From positions 1,106 through 65,105 of the forward strand of contig CAYLKC010000001.1 in assembly GCA_964384095.1 (NCBI GenBank): DNA of 64,000 bases, read 5' to 3'. The notes below the pieces were generated by a model. It was given only the letters and a program-made list of their open reading frames with translations. It was not told where the DNA came from and did no database searches. The stretch is from an uncultured Chromatiales bacterium (lineage in GTDB: Bacteria > Pseudomonadota > Gammaproteobacteria > SZUA-140). A program made the translations under genes and the position numbers. Every line of letters begins with the position of its first letter. Position 1 is the first letter of the stretch. This document shows, one piece after another, positions 1 to 56,035 of the stretch.

Positions 1-222
1 GAGGAGGCCGACGTCTGGGATATCGCCGACGGCATGCTCGCCGGCGCGATCCAGTACTGGCTGTATTCGCGGGAGCCCTGCGAGAATCCGCGCTGCGAGG
101 ATTGCGCGGAGTTCAGCACCGCTGAGCAGCGGTTGGCCGCGCTGCAACGCCTGGTCAGGGAATATGCCGAGGAGAGCGAGTACTACCACTCGCGCAACGA
201 CGCCAACGTCGGCCGGGCCTGA
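1..222 (+). CDS. 3' end of a gene starting upstream of the window; Cys-rich C-terminus (CENPRCEDC), function unknown
   Basis: Position 1 is in frame with the listed ORF 34..222; open from the window edge to the stop at 222. Confidence 0.4.
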   Translation, partial: EEADVWDIADGMLAGAIQYWLYSREPCENPRCEDCAEFSTAEQRLAALQRLVREYAEESEYYHSRNDANVGRA

Positions 223-230
223 GCGGCCGC

Positions 231-674
231 TCAGGCCTCGCTGTCGTCGCCCCAGTCGTCGTCGGTGACGGCCTCGAATTCGACACCGAGATCGGCGAGG
301 TCGCCGCTGTCATCCGTGGCGCTGCGCTCGTTGACCACCTTCTGCCGTCGCGCCGCCGTCGCAGTTACCACAACCGGTTCGTTGCGCAAGCGGAAGCCGC
401 GCCGCGCCTTGGTGTAGGCGTTCTTCAGCTCCGGGACGACGCCCTCTTCATCGCCGCGCAATTCACGCAGCTTCGCCTTCACGATATCCCGGTTGTAGGT
501 CAGGATCCCGTTACGCCGGAAATTGAACACATACATCGTGTCCGCATTGCCGGTGTCGAGACGTTCGTCGATGACGACCGGCGTGCTCTTGTCGCCGGCT
601 TCCAGATATCCGCACCACAGAAAATTCTTTGGCATCGATGCTCGCCCTTGATCGGAGAACGACCGACCGTTCAC
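231..674 (-). CDS. hypothetical protein with strongly acidic C-terminal tail
   Basis: 147-aa ORF; GTG start at 674 or ATG at 637 (MPKNFLWCGY...); D/E-rich C-terminus; no recognisable family. Confidence 0.45.
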   Translation of the reverse strand: MNGRSFSDQGRASMPKNFLWCGYLEAGDKSTPVVIDERLDTGNADTMYVFNFRRNGILTYNRDIVKAKLRELRGDEEGVVPELKNAYTKARRGFRLRNEPVVVTATAARRQKVVNERSATDDSGDLADLGVEFEAVTDDDWGDDSEA

Positions 675-787
675 CGTGGCGGGAAATATAGGGCGTGTCC
701 GCAGGGAAATGCAATACTCCCGGCGCCCTGTCAGGCCCGTGTAAGATACCCCTGTCGGCCGGGCCGGACAGGGGGCGGGGACGGGTG

Positions 788-1255
788 ATGACGGGACAGG
801 GATCGGGGACGGGGCAATCGACGCCGGTGACGCCGCGGGTCGCGGTCGATATCGTCATCGAGCATGGCGACGAGCGCCGGGTCGTCCTGATCGAGCGGCG
901 TTTCCCGCCGCCGGGCTGGGCCCTGCCGGGGGGATTCGTCGATGTCGGCGAGACCGTCGAGGCCGCGGCGATGCGCGAGGCCCGCGAGGAGACCGCCCTC
1001 GAGGTTACGCTGGTCTGTCTGCTGGGCTGCTATTCCGATCCCGGCCGCGACCCGCGCGGACACACGGTCAGCCTCGTCTATGCCGCCGTCGGCATGGGGA
1101 CGCCCGAGGCCCGCGACGATGCCCGCCGCTTGCGCCTCGTCGACCCCGGCGATCCGGGCGTGGCGCTGGCCTTCGACCACGCGCGCATCCTCGGGGACTA
1201 TTGCCGCTGGCGCGCGACCGGACAGGCGCCGGGCTGGCGGCCCCGGGGCCGCTGA
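788..1255 (+). CDS. NUDIX hydrolase
   Basis: Nudix box GGFVDVGETVEAAAMREAREETAL (GX5EX7REUXEEXGU); in-frame ATG at 788 preferred over 695, which abuts the divergent gene. Confidence 0.8.
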   Translation: MTGQGSGTGQSTPVTPRVAVDIVIEHGDERRVVLIERRFPPPGWALPGGFVDVGETVEAAAMREAREETALEVTLVCLLGCYSDPGRDPRGHTVSLVYAAVGMGTPEARDDARRLRLVDPGDPGVALAFDHARILGDYCRWRATGQAPGWRPRGR

Positions 1256-1323
1256 CGGGGTCACGTTTCCGGTCGCCGCCGCTGTCCGCAGGGCCCGAAT
1301 TTTGCTAATAAATACACTCAGAG

Positions 1324-1920
1324 ATGGAGACGAAGACTCGTAATCGTCGCAGGCCCCGCGGCAGCTGCCTGATGCTGTCGGCGGTCGCGCTGTGGCTGGC
1401 CTCGGCGGCGGCCCTCGCGGCCACCGGCGAGAACTGGATCCTGATCGACAGCCAGACGCGGACGCTATCGGTAATGGGGTCGGGGGTGGGCCGGCCGCAG
1501 GCCGTGCAGGTGTTCGAGAATGTCGCCTTCGGCCGTGGCGGCGTCGCCCCCTTCCGTCGTTCCGGGGACGGCAAGACGCCGACCGGGGAGTTCTACGTCG
1601 CGTGGATCAATCCGGACAGCCGCTATCATCTGTTCTTCGGCCTCGACTATCCGCGCCCGGCGCATGCCGAGGAGGGCTATCGCGCACAGGCAATCGACGT
1701 CGATACCTATGTGCGCATTCGCGAGGCCCATCACCGCGGCCGCCTGCCGCCGCAGGATACCGCGCTCGGCGGCGAGATCGGCATTCACGGGGTCGGCCGC
1801 CATGACCCCGATATCCACCGCCTGTTCAACTGGACGATGGGCTGTGTCGCGCTGACCGACCGTCAGATCGAACAGCTCGCCTCGTGGGTCACGCTGGGGA
1901 TGCGGGTCGTCATCCGCTGA
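1324..1920 (+). CDS. L,D-transpeptidase (YkuD domain), secreted
   Basis: N-terminal signal peptide; catalytic motif IGIHGVG...NWTMGCVAL (His...Ser/Thr-x-Gly-Cys). Confidence 0.8.
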   Translation: METKTRNRRRPRGSCLMLSAVALWLASAAALAATGENWILIDSQTRTLSVMGSGVGRPQAVQVFENVAFGRGGVAPFRRSGDGKTPTGEFYVAWINPDSRYHLFFGLDYPRPAHAEEGYRAQAIDVDTYVRIREAHHRGRLPPQDTALGGEIGIHGVGRHDPDIHRLFNWTMGCVALTDRQIEQLASWVTLGMRVVIR

Positions 1921-1922
1921 CC

Positions 1923-1941
1923 GCGCCCGCCGCGCGGGCGC
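1923..1941. terminator. GC-rich hairpin between convergent genes (possible bidirectional terminator, no U-tract)
   Basis: gcgcccgc / gcgggcgc 8-bp stem with 3-nt loop, directly between stops at 1920 (+) and 1942 (-). Confidence 0.3.
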
Positions 1942-2772
1942 TCAGGCCGAGCGGCGATGATGCCCGGACGGCCAGCCCCCGTTGGCCATCGACATCTCGA
2001 TGACCTCGACCTCGGCCCGCGTCGGCAGGGCCGGTTTCAGCACCTTCTGTGTCGGACGCGTATGCGCCTGTTTGTGCTTGCGCAGGATCTTTTCTCGCGC
2101 GAAGTCATAGGCATCCTGCCCCAGTATCTCCTTCTCGAGCAGGCGGCGATGTTCGACCAGTTCGGCGCCAAGGCGCTGGTAGGGCTTGCGTGGATCCTGC
2201 CGGTGCGCCGCCTGGATATGCTGGATCAGCGTGCGCAGGAAGGTCGAGAACTCGGTGCGTGACGGTGTGTTGTTGCCCAGCTCGAGGAAGATCGCATCGC
2301 CGCTGACGCTGTGGAAGCGCACCAGGTGGCGGGAGCGCAGGAAGAACAGGCCGAGCGTCAGCAGTGATGCGACACCCAGTGAGATCGTGACCGGCAGCCA
2401 CGGCTGCGCCTGCCAGGGGGTCGATGCGAAGACGCTCAGCGCGACCATGAACAGGGTTGCGACCGCGAGGCCGCCGGCGACATACAGCGAACGCCAGTCG
2501 ATGATCGACAGCAGGTGCGGGGTCGGGTCGAGGAAGCCGAGGTCGAGCCAGTAGCGCCGGGCCTTTTTCAGCGGGCGTTTCTGCTGCACCGAGAGGAAAC
2601 GGCCATCGAAGATCGTGTAATGGGCTGCGTGCAGGCGCAGATGGCTGACCTGGAACAGTTCGATCAGCTCGGAGGGCTTCGGCGCCCTTCCCGCGCTCTC
2701 GGTGCCGAGCTGGATCTCGTCGTCGGCGGGCGGCAGGACAGAGTCCTCCGGTGGAATGCGGGTCGTGGTCAT
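1942..2772 (-). CDS. hypothetical integral membrane protein (>=2 TM helices), last gene of the ATP-grasp operon
   Basis: Start trimmed to the ATG (MTTTRIPPED) preceded by GGAGG; hydrophobic segments LAVATLFMVALSVF and ISLGVASLLTLGLFFL; 48 nt downstream of the FGase-like gene. Confidence 0.55.
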   Translation of the reverse strand: MTTTRIPPEDSVLPPADDEIQLGTESAGRAPKPSELIELFQVSHLRLHAAHYTIFDGRFLSVQQKRPLKKARRYWLDLGFLDPTPHLLSIIDWRSLYVAGGLAVATLFMVALSVFASTPWQAQPWLPVTISLGVASLLTLGLFFLRSRHLVRFHSVSGDAIFLELGNNTPSRTEFSTFLRTLIQHIQAAHRQDPRKPYQRLGAELVEHRRLLEKEILGQDAYDFAREKILRKHKQAHTRPTQKVLKPALPTRAEVEVIEMSMANGGWPSGHHRRSA

Positions 2773-2870
2773 CGGGTTACGGCCTCCGGCACGTTCAAGG
2801 GGATGGCTGGATAGTATCGGCACGTGACGCGCCGATTCCGTGACCGGATTGACAATTCGGAGAGGCGGTC

Positions 2871-3584
2871 TCAGCCGCCGGCCAGCGCGCGTACCGTGTC
2901 GCGCAGGCTGGCGGCGAGCAGCGGGTACAGCCGCCGCGCCGCCCCGCGGGCGGACAACAGGCGCTGGTTGAGTTCGAGTTCGACCCCGGCGTAGCGGAGT
3001 GCGGCAAAGCGGGTTCGCAGGTGACGCGTCAGGCCGTCGCTGACGCCGCGATACGGATAATTGCTGCGCACGATGAACTCGCCGCCGTCGCGCAGCGCCT
3101 GCCGCCAGACCCGGCAGGCCAGCTGCTCGAAACGGCGGGAGGGGTCGTAGAGCAGGGCGATATCGGCGCGGCGTTCGACGCCGTCGAGCACCGGCGTGAA
3201 GCTGTGCACGGCGACATGCAGCACGCGATGGCCGCGCGCGAGCCGGTCTGCGATGGCGGCTTCGACGCGTTGGCGGTGCGGGTGGTACCAGCGCGCGAGG
3301 ATGCGCCGGCGATCGGCATCGGGCAGCGCGCGGGTGATGTCCGAGAACAGCGCGGGGTGATGCGGCGAGCGATTCAGGTCGACGAACAGCCGCGAGGTGT
3401 CTGCATACAGCAGTGGCGCGCGCAGCCGTCGCGCCAGCGCGCGCGCGGCGTCCAGCGCGCCGATGTCATGGCCGCGATGGCTGTCGAGGCGGGCGCGCTG
3501 GCCGCGAAACAGCGGTTGCCAGGGCGACGGGATGCGATTGCCGGCGTGTTCGCAGCTCAGTACCAGCGTGACCGGGGCGGCCAT
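2871..3584 (-). CDS. N-formylglutamate amidohydrolase (FGase/HutG-like) family protein
   Basis: LVLSCEHAGNRIP ... LFVDLNRS motifs typical of PF05013; start set to MAAPVTLV (alternative start at 3644). Confidence 0.75.
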   Translation of the reverse strand: MAAPVTLVLSCEHAGNRIPSPWQPLFRGQRARLDSHRGHDIGALDAARALARRLRAPLLYADTSRLFVDLNRSPHHPALFSDITRALPDADRRRILARWYHPHRQRVEAAIADRLARGHRVLHVAVHSFTPVLDGVERRADIALLYDPSRRFEQLACRVWRQALRDGGEFIVRSNYPYRGVSDGLTRHLRTRFAALRYAGVELELNQRLLSARGAARRLYPLLAASLRDTVRALAGG

Positions 3585-3594
3585 CCGTTGGGGC

Positions 3595-4851
3595 TCAGGC
3601 CTCGAACAGCGTGCCGCCGGCAAGGCAGTCGCAGAGGCGGGCATAGACGGCGGCGATGTCCTCGCGCGCAGGCGCCGGGCCGACGGCTTCGGCGATGCGG
3701 CGGGCGAGTACGCCGCGCCGCAGGTAGAGGTTGTAGACCCGTTGCCGTGACGCGTCGGCGCCGGCCGCAGGCAGGGCCTCGATCAGGTGTTGCCAGAGTT
3801 CGCGCGCGCGACAGCGGCCGCGCTCGGGCCAGCCGAACGCGGCGAGGAAATCGCGATCGCCGATCAGGGCCTGGTCGGCATCGCGCACGGCCGCATCGAA
3901 CAGGGCCTCGAGCGACCGCGTGTCCCAGGCCTGCTGGGCGTCGAGTCCGCACCAGGCCTCTTCGGTCAGCGCGCGCACCAGTTCGATGATCAGCGTCGCG
4001 AGGGCGAGATCGGCGGCCGGGCACTCCTGGGTATCGAGTACGCGGATCTCGATCGCATGGCGATCGAAACGGGCGATCGCGCCGCGCGCATTGACCCATT
4101 CGTGGCGCAAAACGCCTTCCGGGTCGTGGGGCGCGAGATCGTCGTAGATGCGCTGCAGCAGGTGCTGCTCGTAGTCGCGACGCGAGTAGACCGGTTCGGG
4201 GATCACCCGGCCGCTGACCGACGGGACCCGGCGCGCGTTGCTGCGGTAGACCGCGAGGCGGTTGTCGAGGATGCCGGTCGGGGCACCATCCATCAGCGGC
4301 GAACTGGCCGCCAGCGCCGGCAGCAAGGGCAGGACGAGGCGGATCGCCGCGTGCAGGCGCGCGAACTCGGCGTCATTCGCGAACGGCAGATTGATGTGCA
4401 TGCTCTGCAGGTTCGACCAGCCATGTCCGCGGCAATCGAAGATACGATTGAAGGCCTCGTAGATCGGGTTCTGCTCGTGCGGCCACAGCCGCGTCTCGGC
4501 GTGCGGGTCCATCCACGGGTGCATCGCGGTCGGCATCAGGCGTCCGTTCTCCGCCGCGAGCAGGGCGTTGATACGGCCGACATCGTGCTGGAATGCGGAC
4601 TCGAGTCCGGCGAGCGCGGGGGCCGGGCCGTTGGTCTTCAGTTCGATGACATGGAGCGCGAGTTCATTCGACCAGGCCAGCGCGCCGGTCTCGATCTCGT
4701 TGACGTAGTCGCCGGCGACAGCCCTGAGCACGCGATCGGTGACCGGCAGTACCGCCAGCCGATCGCGGTCGACGATCATGTATTCGATCTCGATCCCGGT
4801 GACCTCGAACAGGCGCCAGACCGGCGTTTCCTCAGCGTGGCTTGCGCTCAC
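3595..4851 (-). CDS. GCS2-family carboxylate-amine ligase (YbdK / glutamate-cysteine-ligase-like, COG2170)
   Basis: 418 aa; EIEYMIVD start of the GCS2 fold; HINLPF, EIRVLD motifs; 20-nt overlap with the upstream ATP-grasp gene. Confidence 0.8.
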   Translation of the reverse strand: MSASHAEETPVWRLFEVTGIEIEYMIVDRDRLAVLPVTDRVLRAVAGDYVNEIETGALAWSNELALHVIELKTNGPAPALAGLESAFQHDVGRINALLAAENGRLMPTAMHPWMDPHAETRLWPHEQNPIYEAFNRIFDCRGHGWSNLQSMHINLPFANDAEFARLHAAIRLVLPLLPALAASSPLMDGAPTGILDNRLAVYRSNARRVPSVSGRVIPEPVYSRRDYEQHLLQRIYDDLAPHDPEGVLRHEWVNARGAIARFDRHAIEIRVLDTQECPAADLALATLIIELVRALTEEAWCGLDAQQAWDTRSLEALFDAAVRDADQALIGDRDFLAAFGWPERGRCRARELWQHLIEALPAAGADASRQRVYNLYLRRGVLARRIAEAVGPAPAREDIAAVYARLCDCLAGGTLFEA

Positions 4852-6301
4852 CCTTGCGCTCCTCTATGCGGTCAAGGAATCCCTGCATGATCGTCTCGTA
4901 GAGGGCATTGCGGAGCACGCCGTCCTCGGTGCCAGAGTCGATGTTCGGGTTGTCATTGATCTCGATGACATAGGCCTTGTTGTCGATCTCCTTGACGTCG
5001 ACGCCGTAGAGGCCGTCGCCGATCAGGTTGGCGGCCTTCAGAGCGGTCGCGACCACTTGGGGCGGCGCGGCGGCGAGGTCGACTGCCTCGGCGCGCCCCT
5101 CGCGCGGCTTGCCGTCGCCATGATGCTGCACGATCTGCCAGTGCCTGCCGACCATGAAGTACTTGCAGGCGTAGAGCGGCTTTCGGTTGAACACGCCGAT
5201 GCGCCAGTCGAACGCGGTCGGCATGAAGGCCTGGGCGATGATCAGGTCCGATTTTTCCAGCAGGCGCGTGGCCTCGGCGATGAATTGCGCACGGTCGGCG
5301 ACCTTGACGACACCCTGCGAGAAGGCGCTGTCGGGTTGCTTGAGGATGCAGGGCAGGGTGATCGATGAAGACATTGCCTGCAGGTTGCCGCGATTGACGA
5401 TGGTCGTCTGCGGCGCCGGAATACGATGGCGCGCCAGCAGTTCGGCGAGATAGACCTTGTTGGTGCACTTGAGAATCGAATCGGGGTCGTCGATGACGAC
5501 GAGACCCTCCATCTTGGCGCGGCGCGCGAAGCGGTAGGTGTGGTGATTGACGCCGGTGGTCTCGCGAATGAACAGCGCGTCAAACTCGGCGATGCGGCCG
5601 AAATCATTCTTGGTGATCATCTCGACGTAGAAATCGAGCTGCTGTGCCGCGCGTACGAACTTGCGCAGCGCCTTGCCGTCGGACGGCGGCTGGACTTCGG
5701 ACGGATTGTGCAGGATCGCAAGGTCGTAGCGCTCGGTCTGCTGCGTACGTCGCGGCGAGCGCTTGCCGGCAAAATGCTCGGCCGCGGTCTCGATGACGAA
5801 GGGCTTGTGATCCTCGGGGATGTCGTTGGTCGCGATCGGGCCGATGCTCTGCAACTGCCAGTTGCGATTATGGATGAAGCGTGCGCGCAACAGCGGCGCC
5901 GGAAACAGGTTGTAGAGGCTCAGGCTCAGGCGATCGTGCCGGCGGGCGAGGTTGCGTCCGAAGTAGATGCTGAGCACGAACTCCTCGGACTTGATCGGAG
6001 CGAGGCTCTTCTGGATCAGCTCGAAGAGGTCGTCGGAGACGAAGCGGGTGATCGTCTGCGACTTCATGTCCTGGATCGTGTTGACGCTCGGCAGTGGCTT
6101 GTGGCCGCGGGCCTCGGCCAGCAGCGAGACATAGTAGCCGATGCTCTGGTAACGGTATGAGCGCGTCAGGTTGAAGACCTTGGCGCCGCGCATCTCGCTG
6201 AAGCGCGGATCGGACAGGTAGGCCTTGGCGGCGACGACCTCGGCGCCGTGGGTCTGCAGCGGCCAGTCTTCCGGATTATTGACGACGATCAGTATGGGCA
6301 T
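4832..6301 (-). CDS. RimK-like ATP-grasp ligase with N-terminal RimK-like-ATPgrasp-N (RLAN) domain
   Basis: N-terminal ~160 aa alpha/beta domain followed by an ATP-grasp fold (LVVIDDP, ILKQPDSAFSQGV, YGVDVKEIDNKAYVIEIN). Confidence 0.8.
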   Translation of the reverse strand: MPILIVVNNPEDWPLQTHGAEVVAAKAYLSDPRFSEMRGAKVFNLTRSYRYQSIGYYVSLLAEARGHKPLPSVNTIQDMKSQTITRFVSDDLFELIQKSLAPIKSEEFVLSIYFGRNLARRHDRLSLSLYNLFPAPLLRARFIHNRNWQLQSIGPIATNDIPEDHKPFVIETAAEHFAGKRSPRRTQQTERYDLAILHNPSEVQPPSDGKALRKFVRAAQQLDFYVEMITKNDFGRIAEFDALFIRETTGVNHHTYRFARRAKMEGLVVIDDPDSILKCTNKVYLAELLARHRIPAPQTTIVNRGNLQAMSSSITLPCILKQPDSAFSQGVVKVADRAQFIAEATRLLEKSDLIIAQAFMPTAFDWRIGVFNRKPLYACKYFMVGRHWQIVQHHGDGKPREGRAEAVDLAAAPPQVVATALKAANLIGDGLYGVDVKEIDNKAYVIEINDNPNIDSGTEDGVLRNALYETIMQGFLDRIEERKGERKPR

Positions 6302-7055
6302 GACGCCGGGCAGCCGGTTTCCTCGCCGGCTCTATGATCAGCAGGTTTGCATCGTGGGTCAGGATGCCGAGCAGGATCGCACCGATGACGCGATCGATGT
6401 TGATCTCGTAATACTGGCTCGGCGCCATCGGGTTCGGGTGCAGCGGGTCGATCACCAGCACGGTGCGGTCCTGCGGTTCGTAATCGCCAAGGATCACGAA
6501 GTGACCACTCGGCTTGCCGCGGATGTCGTCGTAGACGGAATCCGGCCCGTACTCGCGCTGGCTCTGATACAGATACGTGGCGCTGAGGCCGGTCAGGATC
6601 GGGATGCCGCGCTTCAGATAGCGGCGGACCAGACCGCTGGTCAGTTCCTCGAACTCGATGCTGCCGCCGAGCTCGAGGAATTCGAGGTAGCCGGCGGTGG
6701 CGAGATCGACCGAGGGCTTCTTGCGGAATTTCATCTGCCGGCGCAGGCGGTCGCGCAGATCAATGCCGGAGTCGATCAGGAACCATGACGGATCGAACAT
6801 CTGCAGGTTGTAGGTGTAGATCCTGGCCCGGTAACCGCGCCGCAGCGCGTGGCAGGCAAGGAATACTGCGAGTGTGCCACCGTGATCGAGGCGCTGGATC
6901 TCGTCGATGACCTGCTCGAGCGGCAGTTCATCGTTGAAATAGCGGTACATCGCGTGCAGACAGGTCGGTCCGCAGGTGGTCTCGTCCGGCTGCGGCAAGA
7001 TGTCGATGGCCATCCCGTGTTCCATGCGCGTCCGGGGTCTCTGTTCTGCGTGCAC
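6276..7055 (-). CDS. papain-like / C39-BtrH-like cysteine peptidase-fold protein
   Basis: Putative catalytic Cys in DETTCGPTCLHAMY; downstream His (GHFVILGDY) and Asp (VIDPLHP); GTG start 1 nt after the upstream stop. Confidence 0.5.
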   Translation of the reverse strand: MHAEQRPRTRMEHGMAIDILPQPDETTCGPTCLHAMYRYFNDELPLEQVIDEIQRLDHGGTLAVFLACHALRRGYRARIYTYNLQMFDPSWFLIDSGIDLRDRLRRQMKFRKKPSVDLATAGYLEFLELGGSIEFEELTSGLVRRYLKRGIPILTGLSATYLYQSQREYGPDSVYDDIRGKPSGHFVILGDYEPQDRTVLVIDPLHPNPMAPSQYYEINIDRVIGAILLGILTHDANLLIIEPARKPAARRHAHTDRRQ

Positions 7056-52576: not shown

Positions 52577-53716
52577 ATGGCAGAGAAACCGGCACAGGAG
52601 CGGACCGAACAACCTACACCCAAACGCCTGCAACAGGCGAAGGAGAAGGGTCAGGTCGCACGCTCGCGCGAGCTGACCACGATGTTCGTGCTGCTGGTTT
52701 CCGCCGCCTGCCTGATCATGATCGGTGACGGGATCATCGCCGGCATCATCGGTGTCATGCACGACACCCTGGAGATCTCCCGCCGCGACCTGATGGACCC
52801 GAACATGGCGCCGGTCATGCTCGAACAGGCCCTGGCCGGGGCGATGTTTGCCCTGCTGCCGTTCCTCACGATCGTGCTTGCAGTCGCGATCATCGCGCCG
52901 ATGGCGCTGAGCGGCTGGTCCTTCAGCAGTCAGGCGATGGCCTTCAAGTGGGAGAAGATGGACCCGGTCAAGGGCCTCGGCCGCATCTTCTCTGCCCGCG
53001 CACTGGTCGAACTGCTGAAGGCGCTGGCCAAGTTCTCGGTCGTGCTGGCGATTGCGCTGATCTTTCTCTGGTTCAACGTCGACACCATGCTCGGTCTCGG
53101 CGCCCAGTCGGCGGAGGCAGCGCTCGGCAGTGCCGGCGACATCCTGGTGTGGGCCTTTCTGATCCTGAGCTCGGCGATGATCCTGATCGCCGCCGTCGAC
53201 GTCCCGTTCCAGCTCTGGGACCACCAGCGCCAGCTGCGCATGACCCGCCAGGAGATCAAGGACGAGATGAAGGAGACCGACGGCAGCCCCGAGGTCAAGC
53301 GCCGCGTTCGCGAGGTCCGCAACGAGATCATGCGCCGCCGCATGATGGACGCGGTCCCGACCGCCGATGTCGTCATCACCAACCCGACCCACTTTGCCGT
53401 TGCCCTCAAGTACGACCAGGCGAAGATGTCGGCGCCGATCGTCGTCGCCAAGGGCAAGGACCTGGTCGCGATGCAGATCCGCAACCTCGCGGTCCGCCAC
53501 AAGGTCCCGATCGTCTCGGCCCCGCCGCTCGCGCGCGCGCTGTTCCACAGCACCGAACTCCAGCAGCGCATCCCGACCGGCCTGTTCCTCGCGGTCGCCC
53601 AGGTCCTCGCCTACGCCTACCAGCTGCGCCGCCACCCGCACAAGCGCCGCCGCGAGGCCTTCGATGACCTCCCGATCCCCGAAGACCTCCGCGTCGACGA
53701 TGCGCCGGGAAACTGA
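52577..53716 (+). CDS. flhB: flagellar export switch protein FlhB
   Basis: NPTH autocleavage site (VVITNPTHFAVALKYD) and four TM segments. Confidence 0.95.
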   Translation: MAEKPAQERTEQPTPKRLQQAKEKGQVARSRELTTMFVLLVSAACLIMIGDGIIAGIIGVMHDTLEISRRDLMDPNMAPVMLEQALAGAMFALLPFLTIVLAVAIIAPMALSGWSFSSQAMAFKWEKMDPVKGLGRIFSARALVELLKALAKFSVVLAIALIFLWFNVDTMLGLGAQSAEAALGSAGDILVWAFLILSSAMILIAAVDVPFQLWDHQRQLRMTRQEIKDEMKETDGSPEVKRRVREVRNEIMRRRMMDAVPTADVVITNPTHFAVALKYDQAKMSAPIVVAKGKDLVAMQIRNLAVRHKVPIVSAPPLARALFHSTELQQRIPTGLFLAVAQVLAYAYQLRRHPHKRRREAFDDLPIPEDLRVDDAPGN

Positions 53717-53793
53717 CATGGAACGATTCTTGAAAGAAATGCTGTGCACAGGCACGACGTGGATCAATGAAGGATGTGGCAGAAGATTCCCGG

Positions 53794-53900
53794 AGCCTGC
53801 CGGGTGTCGCCCGACGGGACCGTACGGCCGCATGGATGCGGCCGTAGAGCGTACAGGGACGTATTCAAAGCGTGTCCCGTCGGGCGACACCCGGCAGGCT
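53794..53900. repeat. 107-nt nested inverted-repeat element in the flhB-flhA intergenic region
   Basis: Perfect 27-nt arms (agcctgccgggtgtcgcccgacgggac / gtcccgtcgggcgacacccggcaggct) enclosing a second perfect 10-bp hairpin (tacggccgca-tgga-tgcggccgta). Confidence 0.6.
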
Positions 53901-53929
53901 CAACCACTGATTGAAAGATCTATCGAGGC

Positions 53930-56035
53930 ATGGCGATGAACAACGCAACGGTAATGAACGGCATCCAGTTCCTCGGCCGCAACGCCATGCTCGGCGCGCC
54001 GATCCTGATGATGGTGCTGCTGATGTTGCTGGTCGTGCCGATGCCGCCGTTGATGCTCGACATCTTCTTCACCTTCAACATCGCGCTGTCACTCGTCGTC
54101 ATCATGGCCTGCGTCTACAGCGGCAGGCCGCTGGCCTTCGCCGCCTTTCCGACCGTGCTGCTGCTCGCGCCCCTGCTGCGGCTCGCGCTCAACATCGCCT
54201 CGACCCGCGTCGTGTTGCTCGAGGGACACACCGGCACCGACGCCGCCGGCAAGGTCATCGAGTCGTTCGGCGCCTTCGTGATTGGCGGAAATTACGCCGT
54301 CGGTCTGGTCGTCTTTGCGATCCTCGTCATCATCAACTTCGTCGTCGTCACCAAGGGTGCAGGGCGCATCTCGGAAGTCAGCGCCCGATTCACTCTCGAT
54401 GCGATGCCGGGCAAGCAGATGGCCATCGATGCTGATCTGAACGCCGGCATCATCGACCAGAAGGAGGCGCGCCGCCGCCGCGAGGACGTCGTCGCCGAGG
54501 CCGATTTCTACGGTTCGATGGACGGTGCCAGCAAGTTCGTCCGCGGCGACGCGATCGCCGGCATCCTGATTCTGCTGATCACCATCATTGGCGGCCTGTC
54601 GATCGGCATGCTGCAGCATGGCATGGCCTTCAGCGACGCCGTCCACAACTACACCCTGCTGACGATCGGCGATGGTCTCGTCGCCCAGATCCCGTCGCTG
54701 GTGCTGTCGACCGCCGCCGCGATCATGGTTACCCGCGTGTCCCAGGAACAGGACATGGGCGGGCAGATGATCAGCCAGTTGTTCGAGAACCCGCGCACGC
54801 TCGCCGTCACCGGTGGCGTGCTCGGCACGCTCGGCCTGATCCCGGGCATGCCGAACATGGTCTTCCTGTCGCTCGGCGCCGCTGCCGGGGCCGGCAGCTG
54901 GCTGATCTGGCGACGGCGAACGCAGGCGGCCGGCGCCGGCAAGACGCAGGCAGGCGCGCCGGCGCCCGCCGAAGCGGTGGCGCCGGAAAACCGTGATCTC
55001 AGCTGGGACGACGTCGTCCCCGTCGATGCCATCGGGCTCGAGGTCGGATACCGCCTGATCCCGCTGGTCGACAAGAACCAGGGCGGGCAACTTATGCCGC
55101 GCATCAAGGGTGTGCGCCGCAAGCTGACCCAGGAAGTCGGCTTCCTGATCCCGCCGGTGCATATCCGCGACAACCTCGAACTGTCGCCGAACGCCTATCG
55201 CATCACGCTGTTCGGTGTCACCGTCGGCGAGGCCGAGGTGTGGCCCGATCGCGAACTCGCGATCAATCCCGGCCAGGTCTTCGGCAAGCTGTCGGGCGTC
55301 GCGACGCGCGATCCGGCCTTCGGCATGGATGCGATCTGGATCGAGCCGAACCAGCGCGATCAGGCGCAGAGCCTCGGCTATACCGTCGTCGACACCAGCA
55401 CGGTGATCGCCACGCATCTGAACCATATCCTGCAGACCCATGCCCACGAACTGCTCGGCCGCGAAGAGGTCCAGCAGCTGCTCGACACGCTCGGCCGCAA
55501 CTCGCCGAAGCTGGTCGAGGGCCTGGTGCCGGAGACGCTGCCGCTCGGGACCCTGCAGAAGGTCCTGCGCAACCTGCTCGAGGAGCGTATCCCGCTGCGC
55601 GACATGCGCAGTATCGCCGAGTGTCTGGCCGCGAACGCGCCGAACAGTCAAAACCCCGGCGAACTGACGGCGCTGACGCGCGTCGCATTGGGCAGGATGA
55701 TTGTCCAGAATATCAATGGCTTGGAGCCTCAGCTCCCGGTCATCACGCTGGATCCGAGTCTGGAACAGTTATTGCTAGATAGCCTCAAGACGCAGAGCGC
55801 GGGCGGCATGGCCCTCGAACCGGGACTCGCGGAGAAACTGCACCAGTCCCTGATCGACGCGGCGCAGCGCCAGGAGCTGGCAGGACAAGCGGTGGTGTTG
55901 CTGGTGTCCGCGGCCCTGAGACCGATGCTGGCGCGCTTCATCCGGCACTCGATCGCGACGATGCATGTGCTCTCGTACGACGAGATACCGGACAACAGGC
56001 AGATCAGGATCGTCGCCAGCATCGGGCGGCCCTGA
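53930..56035 (+). CDS. flhA: flagellar export apparatus protein FlhA
   Basis: FHIPEP N-terminal TM domain and C-terminal cytoplasmic domain. Confidence 0.95.
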   Translation: MAMNNATVMNGIQFLGRNAMLGAPILMMVLLMLLVVPMPPLMLDIFFTFNIALSLVVIMACVYSGRPLAFAAFPTVLLLAPLLRLALNIASTRVVLLEGHTGTDAAGKVIESFGAFVIGGNYAVGLVVFAILVIINFVVVTKGAGRISEVSARFTLDAMPGKQMAIDADLNAGIIDQKEARRRREDVVAEADFYGSMDGASKFVRGDAIAGILILLITIIGGLSIGMLQHGMAFSDAVHNYTLLTIGDGLVAQIPSLVLSTAAAIMVTRVSQEQDMGGQMISQLFENPRTLAVTGGVLGTLGLIPGMPNMVFLSLGAAAGAGSWLIWRRRTQAAGAGKTQAGAPAPAEAVAPENRDLSWDDVVPVDAIGLEVGYRLIPLVDKNQGGQLMPRIKGVRRKLTQEVGFLIPPVHIRDNLELSPNAYRITLFGVTVGEAEVWPDRELAINPGQVFGKLSGVATRDPAFGMDAIWIEPNQRDQAQSLGYTVVDTSTVIATHLNHILQTHAHELLGREEVQQLLDTLGRNSPKLVEGLVPETLPLGTLQKVLRNLLEERIPLRDMRSIAECLAANAPNSQNPGELTALTRVALGRMIVQNINGLEPQLPVITLDPSLEQLLLDSLKTQSAGGMALEPGLAEKLHQSLIDAAQRQELAGQAVVLLVSAALRPMLARFIRHSIATMHVLSYDEIPDNRQIRIVASIGRP

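Follow-up and report, generated by a model that had tools for sequence, protein, structure and literature searches.

Hairpin-forming repeats of the miniature inverted-repeat transposable element (MITE) kind are already known in bacteria, and the family closest to the element considered here is known from the enterobacteria. PMC2229807 summarizes YPAL as an abundant, intergenic repeat of approximately 168 bp in Yersinia and Erwinia, which has internal inverted repeats and no TA ends, is flanked by target duplications of 3–26 bp at targets near dyad symmetry, and occupies sites that are filled in some strains and empty in others; it is co-transcribed with the upstream gene, with a possible effect on mRNA stability. 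Delihas (PMC2759123) prints the 168-nt RU-2 repeat of Y. pestis, and RU-2 is the YPAL of De Gregorio et al. (2006, J Bacteriol 188:7876). Ysr224 (Rfam RF02770) is described in Rfam as a small RNA (sRNA) with function unknown. In Y. pseudotuberculosis, RNA-seq detected it as a feature of 53 nt that lies between secA and mutT and points in the same direction as these two genes (Nuss et al. 2015, PMC4376681); it is multi-copy (PMC9029176, PMC12112432). Here we describe a 109-nt palindromic element between the flagellar genes flhB and flhA in a 64,000-nt stretch (hereafter the window) of contig CAYLKC010000001.1 from an uncultured Chromatiales bacterium. We favor, with moderate confidence, a reading of the sequence in which this is a MITE-like YPAL/RU-2 insertion in the flhA leader that would fold into a stable RNA hairpin with a role in mRNA stability or processing, and that would carry predicted docking sites for the regulator CsrA.

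The flhB-flhA element and its relation to YPAL/RU-2

The element occupies positions 53793–53901 of the forward strand, as delimited by its arms, its fold and the comparison of orthologous loci, and begins 76 nt 3' of the flhB stop codon. The outer stem, P1, is formed by a G-rich 5' arm (53793–53820) and a C-rich 3' arm (53874–53901), each of 28 nt, which are 100% complementary and have 53 nt between them. The P2 hairpin (53821–53847) consists of the pair C53821:G53847 and an 11-bp stem (53823–53833/53836–53846) whose arms are separated by 2 nt, and its loop reads CAUGGAUG, with GGA at 53834–53836. The P3 hairpin (53849–53871), which is seen both in the minimum free energy fold and with RNAalifold, includes a GCG/AGC base, a UUCAA bulge, a UAC/GUA stem and the hexaloop AGGGAC, with GGA at 53857–53859. 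The 3' arm is followed by AACCACUGAUUG.

An earlier note on this DNA had recorded perfect 27-nt arms, a perfect inner palindrome of 10 bp, and a total of 107 nt between flhB and flhA; the location and the perfection of both pairings stand, while the lengths are really 28 nt, 11 bp and 109 nt. The same note correctly placed the element in a 213-nt spacer (flhB stop at 53716, first flhA ATG at 53930) and judged the repeat to be far beyond chance in 64 kb. It is the longest and sole perfect inverted repeat of the window, and a comparable arm pair arises in no shuffle of the window. The predicted stability of the stem-loop was borne out by RNA folding, in which the spacer reached –112 kcal/mol against –74 ± 4 in shuffled sequences (z = –9.1). 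No second copy was found within the window by arm search, by a core search allowing 3 mismatches, or with a covariance model, in agreement with the earlier note. The element is not an intrinsic terminator, because it has no U tract, and no terminator-like site is present in 53600–54000. The three-way junction with its two GGA loops is a conserved feature beyond that first view of the sequence. No sigma-70-like promoter flanks the window copy on either strand.

The locus was found identical in two metagenome assemblies. One contig identical to the window (ERZ27258551) ends inside the 5' arm of the element, at the equivalent of position 53810, and the hairpin or repeat may be the cause of this assembly break.

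By alignment, the center of RU-2, gtaaagcgtccgcgccaaggatggcgcggctcgagcctacatggatgtatttacggcgtctttac, is the same apical junction as that of the window element. The apical approximately 55 nt align with the printed RU-2 of Y. pestis CO92 with 37 columns invariant among 8 sequences, and the shared features include CGT, P2 with its GGA loop, and GAGC-TACA-GGA-GTATT-A-GCG. Furthermore, YPAL/RU-2 and the family of the window element both form long hairpins that are not AT-rich, lie in multiple copies between genes and often a short way past a stop codon, vary between occupied and unoccupied sites, and lack a transposase of their own. The two differ in length (approximately 167–169 bp, or 130 bp in a variant, for YPAL, and 109 nt here), in the inverted repeat (internal and imperfect in YPAL, terminal, perfect and of 28 bp here), in target duplication (3–26 bp in YPAL, none detected here), and in host, since the accounts consulted (PMC2759123, PMC2229807) place YPAL in Yersinia and Erwinia, while the window is from a non-enteric gammaproteobacterium. 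The two GGA loops and CsrA are unmentioned in these accounts.

A second connection is provided by the Rfam model of Ysr224. When eight family loci were scanned, RF02770 matched a copy from Pectobacterium (locus L090, 2393–2499) with 101 bits, above its gathering score of 70, and four other copies with 25–32 bits, always on the strand opposite the GGA loops; the covariance model built from the family described below, R1, matches the Pectobacterium copy on the other strand. Because one copy satisfies both models, a chance motif is an unlikely explanation for the similarity to RU-2. On the window alone, Rfam returned chance miRNA hits and a Ysr224 hit on the minus strand of 17.3 bits (E = 0.44), which is under the gathering score and gained meaning because other family members matched RF02770. 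The Rfam model covers the same repeat on the opposite strand, including only the apex, one arm and flanking sequence, and what Rfam describes as an sRNA is here a family of mobile hairpin repeats. Although the window element falls short of the YPAL length and of the RF02770 gathering score, on sequence comparison it is distantly related to YPAL/RU-2, being a short form with a perfect stem from outside the enteric lineages, with Ysr224 as the enterobacterial branch.

Comparison of related species, which the earlier note had proposed with the caution that an unconserved structure, if also single-copy and evenly read through, would mean a neutral palindrome, revealed a structure kept via compensatory changes. 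Three relatives whose FlhB is 85–87% identical (L003, L005 and L006) carry the element at the same site, with its central part nearly unchanged. Their arms differ and still pair; in each pairwise comparison 7–8 of the 28 P1 pairs are changed on both sides and 0–2 on one side. A fourth genome, L009, has a spacer of 94 nt without the element that retains the apparent last bases of the 3' arm, and by the nucleotide identity of the fliM-flhB region it is the sister of L003 (87.5%, compared with approximately 82–83% for the others). This position, together with the apparent remnant, suggests that L009 lost an element ancestral to the clade by deletion, rather than preserving a never-filled site. 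In three outgroups (FlhB 68–72% identical), the flhB-flhA spacer contains no element. The site therefore varies between filled (the window, L003, L005 and L006) and empty (L009), and the comparison shows an element inserted once in the ancestor of a small clade of uncultured Gammaproteobacteria and inherited vertically with compensatory changes in its stem.

A gammaproteobacterial family of three-way-junction repeats

An exact search with 26 nt of the arm across genome contigs gave no match, because the arms are copy-specific, and the conserved core GAGCNTACAGGGAYGTATTYA was used instead as the family seed and scanned in one genome per species. At least 120 genome stretches contained the core, all from Gammaproteobacteria among the matches listed, and their hosts include Marinobacter, Microbulbifer, Cellvibrio, Rheinheimera, Stenotrophomonas, Pectobacterium, Legionellales, Alcanivorax, Woeseiaceae and many metagenome-assembled genomes. 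A scan of viral contigs added one further copy, and neither E. coli genomes nor PLSDB plasmids had a blastn match to the apex. The option of a REP/MITE-like insertion raised in the earlier note is thus borne out in the form of a dispersed, multi-copy, intergenic family homologous to the YPAL/RU-2 of Yersinia.

Every copy has a shared plan. The P1 outer stem is mostly of 28–29 bp with 0–3 mismatches and has a copy-specific sequence; it is followed by the bases CCGU and by P2, in which a variable stem bears a CA(G/U)GGAUG loop. P3 includes UAC/GUA, the loop AGGGAY in the context ACAGGGAYGU, a 5-nt bulge UUYAC, and the base GCS/RGC. Among 63 copies, 90.5% of the cells were paired, in comparison with 64% when shuffled and 34–38% with slid partners, and double-sided changes were found at 12 of 12 P1 pairs and 7 of 8 P2 pairs; P1, but not P2, was a selection criterion for this set. 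Over the several covariation analyses, the paired fraction was 90–91%, compared with 63–64% for shuffled and 36–42% for slid partners, and double-sided changes affected every pair of P1 and of P2 (8 of 8 in P2). In an independent RNAalifold prediction, P1, P2 and P3a reappear together with two covarying pairs that close a tight three-way junction. The P1-P2-P3 three-way-junction fold is supported by this covariation. The covariance model R1 detected 132 copies in 744 kb of fetched loci, at up to 6 per 8 kb, and 26 more in a further 155 kb; in the window it scores the apical part (53809–53885) with 87 bits (E = 6e-21). The hits also comprise 23 copies without the seed pattern, in which P3a has compensatory replacements (CCC/GGG, CAC/GUG, UCC/GGA and UAU/AUA) and the A(G/U)GGAY loop is kept.

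Arms differ even between copies of one genome, as in L003 and in Marinobacter DUT-3 (loci L047 and L063), which indicates that each copy evolves separately while staying paired. The second copy of L003 (GCA_964437335, 8–80) lies upstream of fliK, has quite different arms and a shortened P3 base (GAGCTACAGGGACGTATTCACGTGTG), and has no counterpart at the equivalent place of the window; L003 has two copies in 17 kb, and the window one in 64 kb. The 5' arms are rich in G (39%, with 23% C) and the 3' arms in C, with a loose consensus consisting of a G-rich distal part, CUUUCC and GGGAC, from which the P1 stems appear to be diverged homologues and not random sequence. We considered that a small core might have been inserted into pre-existing host palindromes, but a consensus of the proximal stem (gccuuccggGac) is shared throughout the family, and in L009 the complete hairpin is lost with the indel. 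An origin of the arms from a duplicated palindromic target was also rejected, the arms not being internally palindromic, as were a hammerhead, twister or other ribozyme, a c-di-GMP riboswitch, a retron, an attC site and a terminator, each of which is at odds with the Rfam results or with features of the sequence.

Copies can be dense. One locus (L108, 4736–5123 and 162–384) has three in tandem at a spacing of approximately 150 nt, and two more, the tandem arrays resembling multi-hairpin sponge RNAs, and an 8-kb scaffold of Microbulbifer epialgicus has six across 8–6357. Given such loci, some genomes must hold very many copies. The viral-contig copy (IMG/VR, 197–268 of its locus) is degenerate and adjoins tandem TGTGGGAGCG-type repeats that are Pseudomonas-like in appearance; an apparent tRNA 3' end approximately 100 nt beyond it may mark a prophage boundary. 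Immediately to the left of the element, 55 out of 90 copies have A at –1, and few have T at –2 (in the window copy, –1 is G), a bias which may reflect a preferred target or mark where the element truly ends. Flanking repeats of 4–5 nt are in weak excess over controls across the family (33 observed versus 17 expected), with element ends that are uncertain by a few bases.

Gene context was assigned with our own composition-scored gene caller, which is crude. Approximately 90% of the copies are intergenic, many of them 10–80 nt from a stop codon, and copies between divergent genes are under-represented (11 of 89). Inverted pairs of copies 1.4–1.5 kb apart flank aroA and a higBA-like gene pair; a composite element or REPtron was considered for these pairs and dismissed, as they simply flank the genes. 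On the strand that bears the GGA loops, the non-Watson-Crick pairs of P1 include 101 G.T/T.G against 20 A.C/C.A (p = 3e-14). Because transitions yield both types equally, this excess indicates that pairing is constrained on the GGA strand as a single strand, and the structural constraint is in this way shown to act on the GGA-bearing strand.

In several of these properties the family resembles REP/BIME repeats and the RAYT-mobilized REPINs, which are likewise high-copy intergenic palindromes depleted between divergent genes and present in both orientations, with strand-specific folding of single-stranded DNA and no target duplication left behind. REPs, however, are units of 20–40 nt with a conserved sequence and a GTAG head, which is not conserved in the family described here (a RAYT gene was not searched for). 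In REPINs the stems are conserved and the loops vary; here the reverse is found.

Predicted CsrA docking and the competing explanations

The consensus of CsrA ligands from in vitro selection by SELEX is RUACARGGAUGU, a hexaloop closed by AC/GU pairs in which ACA and GGA are invariant (PMC7652899). The P3 of the window, GUACAGGGACGU, agrees with it at 11 of 12 positions, and the P3 sequence of the family, (G/C)UACAGGGA(U/C)GU, fits the consensus as well; the loop AGGGAU is present in 67 of 129 copies and gives a match of 12/12 where the stem is UAC/GUA. The P2 loop, CA(G/U)GGAUG, fits the CANGGANG core (CANGGAUG), and the window P2 reads GCAUGGAUGC. Both hairpins have hexaloops, and GGA is found in 129 of 129 P3 loops (in 22 of the 23 copies where the seed does not impose it) and in 122 of 129 P2 loops. 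A single CsrA dimer bridges sites that are 10–63 nt apart (PMC7652899), and since the GGA motifs of the window (53834–53836 and 53857–53859) are 23 nt apart, one dimer should be able to bridge them. Judged from these sequence matches, both loops of the window element are probably CsrA docking sites.

The arrangement has parallels among RNAs of the Csr/Rsm system. Like the element, the CsrB/RsmZ sponges and TwoAYGGAY (RF01731) present paired GGA motifs on short hairpin loops, and in these RNAs such pairs clamp a CsrA/RsmE dimer (PMC7652899, PMC4333381). CsrA binding by TwoAYGGAY was predicted from its paired GGA hairpins (PMC4333381), and the P2 loop of the window, AUGGAU, is literally AYGGAY. 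Those RNAs are single-locus sRNA genes with promoters and terminators of their own, whereas the element is a dispersed repeat; neither the Csr/Rsm families nor TwoAYGGAY gave a cmscan hit at E <= 10 in 53400–54200 or at E <= 0.5 in 8 other family loci. Some family members are enlarged by 40–55 nt inserted in P2, which contain extra CA(N)GGAUG hairpins, e.g., CCCACAUGGAUGUGGG and GCACAGGGAUGCGC, and result in 3–4 GGA hairpins per element (L120, 5714–5841 and 6078–6205; L096, 6745–6875; L032, 7086–7210; L021, 2933–3027). By their sequence these variants recall the multi-hairpin CsrB/RsmZ sponges. An incomplete search of the literature found nothing that links YPAL or Ysr224 to CsrA.

In the mechanism that we propose, a non-coding palindromic repeat of the YPAL/RU-2 superfamily would have entered the flhB-flhA spacer in the ancestor of the clade and been kept since. 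The element would be transcribed in the sense direction within the flhA leader and within any flhB read-through transcript, and the transcript would form a 28-bp helix capped by the two GGA hairpin loops, 23 nt apart. The long duplex may serve as an exonuclease block and possibly as a substrate of RNase III, thereby uncoupling the fates of the flhB and flhA mRNAs, and one CsrA/RsmA dimer might dock across both loops and so tie the flhA mRNA to the Csr system; alternatively, the many copies, when summed, might titrate CsrA. For the effect of the 28-bp duplex on flhB and flhA mRNA, the best analogue is found in the Correia/NEMIS repeats of Neisseria and the ERIC/IRU repeats of enterobacteria, i.e., hairpin MITEs of 100–170 bp that are co-transcribed with their neighbors and whose RNA hairpins are cut by RNase III (NEMIS) or RNase E (ERIC), altering mRNA stability (PMC2229807). 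These repeats are unrelated in sequence, have conserved terminal inverted repeats and TA duplications, and are without the conserved apical junction and the variable, covarying stem, both of which are present in the family described here.

Several observations weigh against this proposal. Copies in tandem gene contexts are evenly divided between the sense (27) and antisense (27) orientations, and the excess of G.T over A.C is equal in sense (24:5) and antisense copies (22:6), so that the strand constraint is not obviously tied to co-transcription with the neighboring gene and could act on a single-stranded DNA or RNA intermediate of transposition, or on transcripts from either source. The P2 stem has 8–11 bp, compared with <=4 bp in most SELEX ligands (PMC7652899), the P3 loop of the window reads GGAC, not GGAU, and the sole transcript on record, the 53-nt Ysr224, comes from the strand opposite the GGA loops. 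At the flhB-flhA locus, no target-site duplication was detected, with ends that are uncertain by a few bases, and the element ends 23 nt before the flhA Shine-Dalgarno sequence, which makes direct occlusion of the latter by the element impossible. Moreover, the promoter-like motif that would place the element in the flhA leader (53719–53733, see below) has the right spacing with respect to the sigma-54 consensus (GG-N10-GC; TGGCAC-N5-TTGC), but its –12 portion reads GA, or GT in the outgroups, and not GC.

The orientation data and the equal antisense excess of G.T favor an alternative in which the element is a selfish or neutral mobile hairpin without a host role, whose stem is kept either because a folded single strand (an ssDNA or RNA intermediate) is required for mobility, its conserved apex being read by an unknown enzyme, or by template-switch correction of quasi-palindromes in replication, and whose GGA loops are the recognition sites of that enzyme, their likeness to CsrA sites being coincidental. 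This alternative is compatible with a multi-copy and intergenic family, with the variable presence of the element at the flhB-flhA site, and with the different arms of copies in one genome (the second copy of L003 and those of Marinobacter DUT-3), and two near-identical loops would suit any dimeric binder. We nevertheless consider it unlikely, if deserving of real weight, because the fivefold excess of G.T over A.C is not predicted by template-switch correction, selection for mobility alone cannot keep one vertically inherited copy paired through 7–8 double substitutions, and no transposase gene adjoins any of the copies examined. A complete match to the CsrA SELEX consensus in approximately half of the copies, together with second to fourth GGA hairpins, is likewise not to be expected by chance. 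The compensatory evolution in situ and the exact consensus match thus favor a role at the level of host RNA, with which a selfish-DNA origin is not mutually exclusive.

Three further explanations are far less credible. An independent Ysr224-type sRNA gene that is read from the minus strand, as the antisense of the GGA loops, and works in trans would agree with RF02770 being modeled on the minus-equivalent strand, with the 53-nt transcript detected in Y. pseudotuberculosis, and with the weak minus-strand hit in the window (17.3 bits). It is very unlikely, as the Yersinia transcript, being co-oriented with secA and mutT, looks like a fragment of mRNA processing, neither a promoter nor a terminator borders the window copy on either of its strands, the structural constraint favors the GGA strand, and the minus strand of the window is antisense to the whole flagellar operon. 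A slightly smaller probability attaches to a cis-regulatory RNA (riboswitch, thermometer or attenuator) that evolved for flagellar control and is dedicated to flhA. That three lineages have the element in the same position, with compensatory changes, and that it is placed after a conserved promoter-like motif and before the start of flhA, would be consistent with such a device, which had also been among the suggestions of the earlier note. The idea is, however, largely refuted by the distribution of the family: the same element is found in both orientations beside aroA, the higBA-like genes and many other unrelated genes, and is absent from the flhB-flhA spacers of L009 and of the outgroup flagellar clusters. 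The lack of a U tract or of any terminator-like shape, and of a match to an Rfam riboswitch family, points in the same direction. Least credible of all is that the 73-codon open reading frame (ORF) at 53718–53939 encodes a small protein and that the palindrome is incidental to it. The frame is indeed open in the window, and Delihas noted open frames in RU-2, but the matching frame of L003 is interrupted by stops, the residues encoded by the arms change freely through compensatory nucleotide changes, and family members are found in either orientation, most of them outside ORFs. The view of the earlier note that this frame is a by-product of the palindrome is supported by the stops in L003, where it is not conserved as an ORF.

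Flanking genes, promoter-like motif and significance

Upstream of the element, the ORF at 52577–53716 (forward strand, 379 aa) corresponds to flhB, and its homologues carry PF01312 and are named FlhB. Downstream, flhA (53936–56035, forward strand) has the conserved start ATGAACAAC and is identified by PF00771 (FHIPEP) in orthologous loci. The ORF listing places the flhA start at the ATG at 53930, but 53936 is the likelier start, because relatives keep only this second ATG (ATGAAYAACGC) and GAGG lies 8 nt upstream of it. This GAGG (53924–53927, forward strand) is the likely flhA Shine-Dalgarno sequence; it is part of CGAGGC, which is kept in L003, L005 and L006, 8 nt before the conserved ATGAAY.

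Directly 3' of the flhB stop codon is a sigma-54-like –24/–12 motif, TGGAACG-N4-TTGA (TGGAACGATTCTTGA; 53719–53733, forward strand). Little or no variation in the motif is seen among 7 lineages, some of which lack the element, whereas the remaining spacer diverges; in the other lineages it reads TGG(A/T)ACG-N4-(T/G)TG(A/T). The pattern TGGNAC-N5-TTGM has only two matches in the window, one of which is this motif. In other polar flagellates, flhA has its own sigma-54 promoter. By analogy, we infer that the motif is a candidate flhA promoter and, because it precedes the element, that the latter would be located in the 5' leader of flhA. A closer match to the sigma-54 consensus (GG-N10-GC), TGGAACAGTTATTGC at 55761–55775, lies inside the 3' end of flhA; flhF starts approximately 320 nt further downstream (56094), and this second motif may serve it as an internal promoter.

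For the biology of this locus, the results mean that the palindrome of the window is a lineage-specific insertion of a mobile hairpin and not a flagellar riboswitch or terminator. The repeat, which the literature consulted describes for Yersinia and Erwinia, belongs to a much wider gammaproteobacterial superfamily, and loci annotated as Ysr224 in genomes represent palindromic repeat copies, not one sRNA gene. Within the literature searched, the breadth of this superfamily, the short variant with a perfect stem, the combination of a variable stem with a constant junction, the strand-specific constraint, and the dual loops of CsrA type all appear to be new. The design is unusual in that the stem is free to vary provided that it remains paired, and the junction and the two GGA loops are near-constant. 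A tentative extension, which goes further than we would hold probable from the sequences, is that YPAL-type repeats are portable CsrA-docking modules, each a self-folding hairpin with two high-affinity GGA loops, or three to four in the enlarged variants. Through their spread between the genes of many Gammaproteobacteria, they would connect arbitrary mRNAs, here that of the flagellar export gate gene flhA, to the Csr/Rsm regulon, and jointly they would constitute a CsrA sponge that is genome-wide and transcription-dependent; the payload of such a mobile element would be the binding site of a global post-transcriptional regulator. If it is true that the loops bind CsrA, mobile DNA would rewire a global post-transcriptional network, and this would explain the retention of the repeat.

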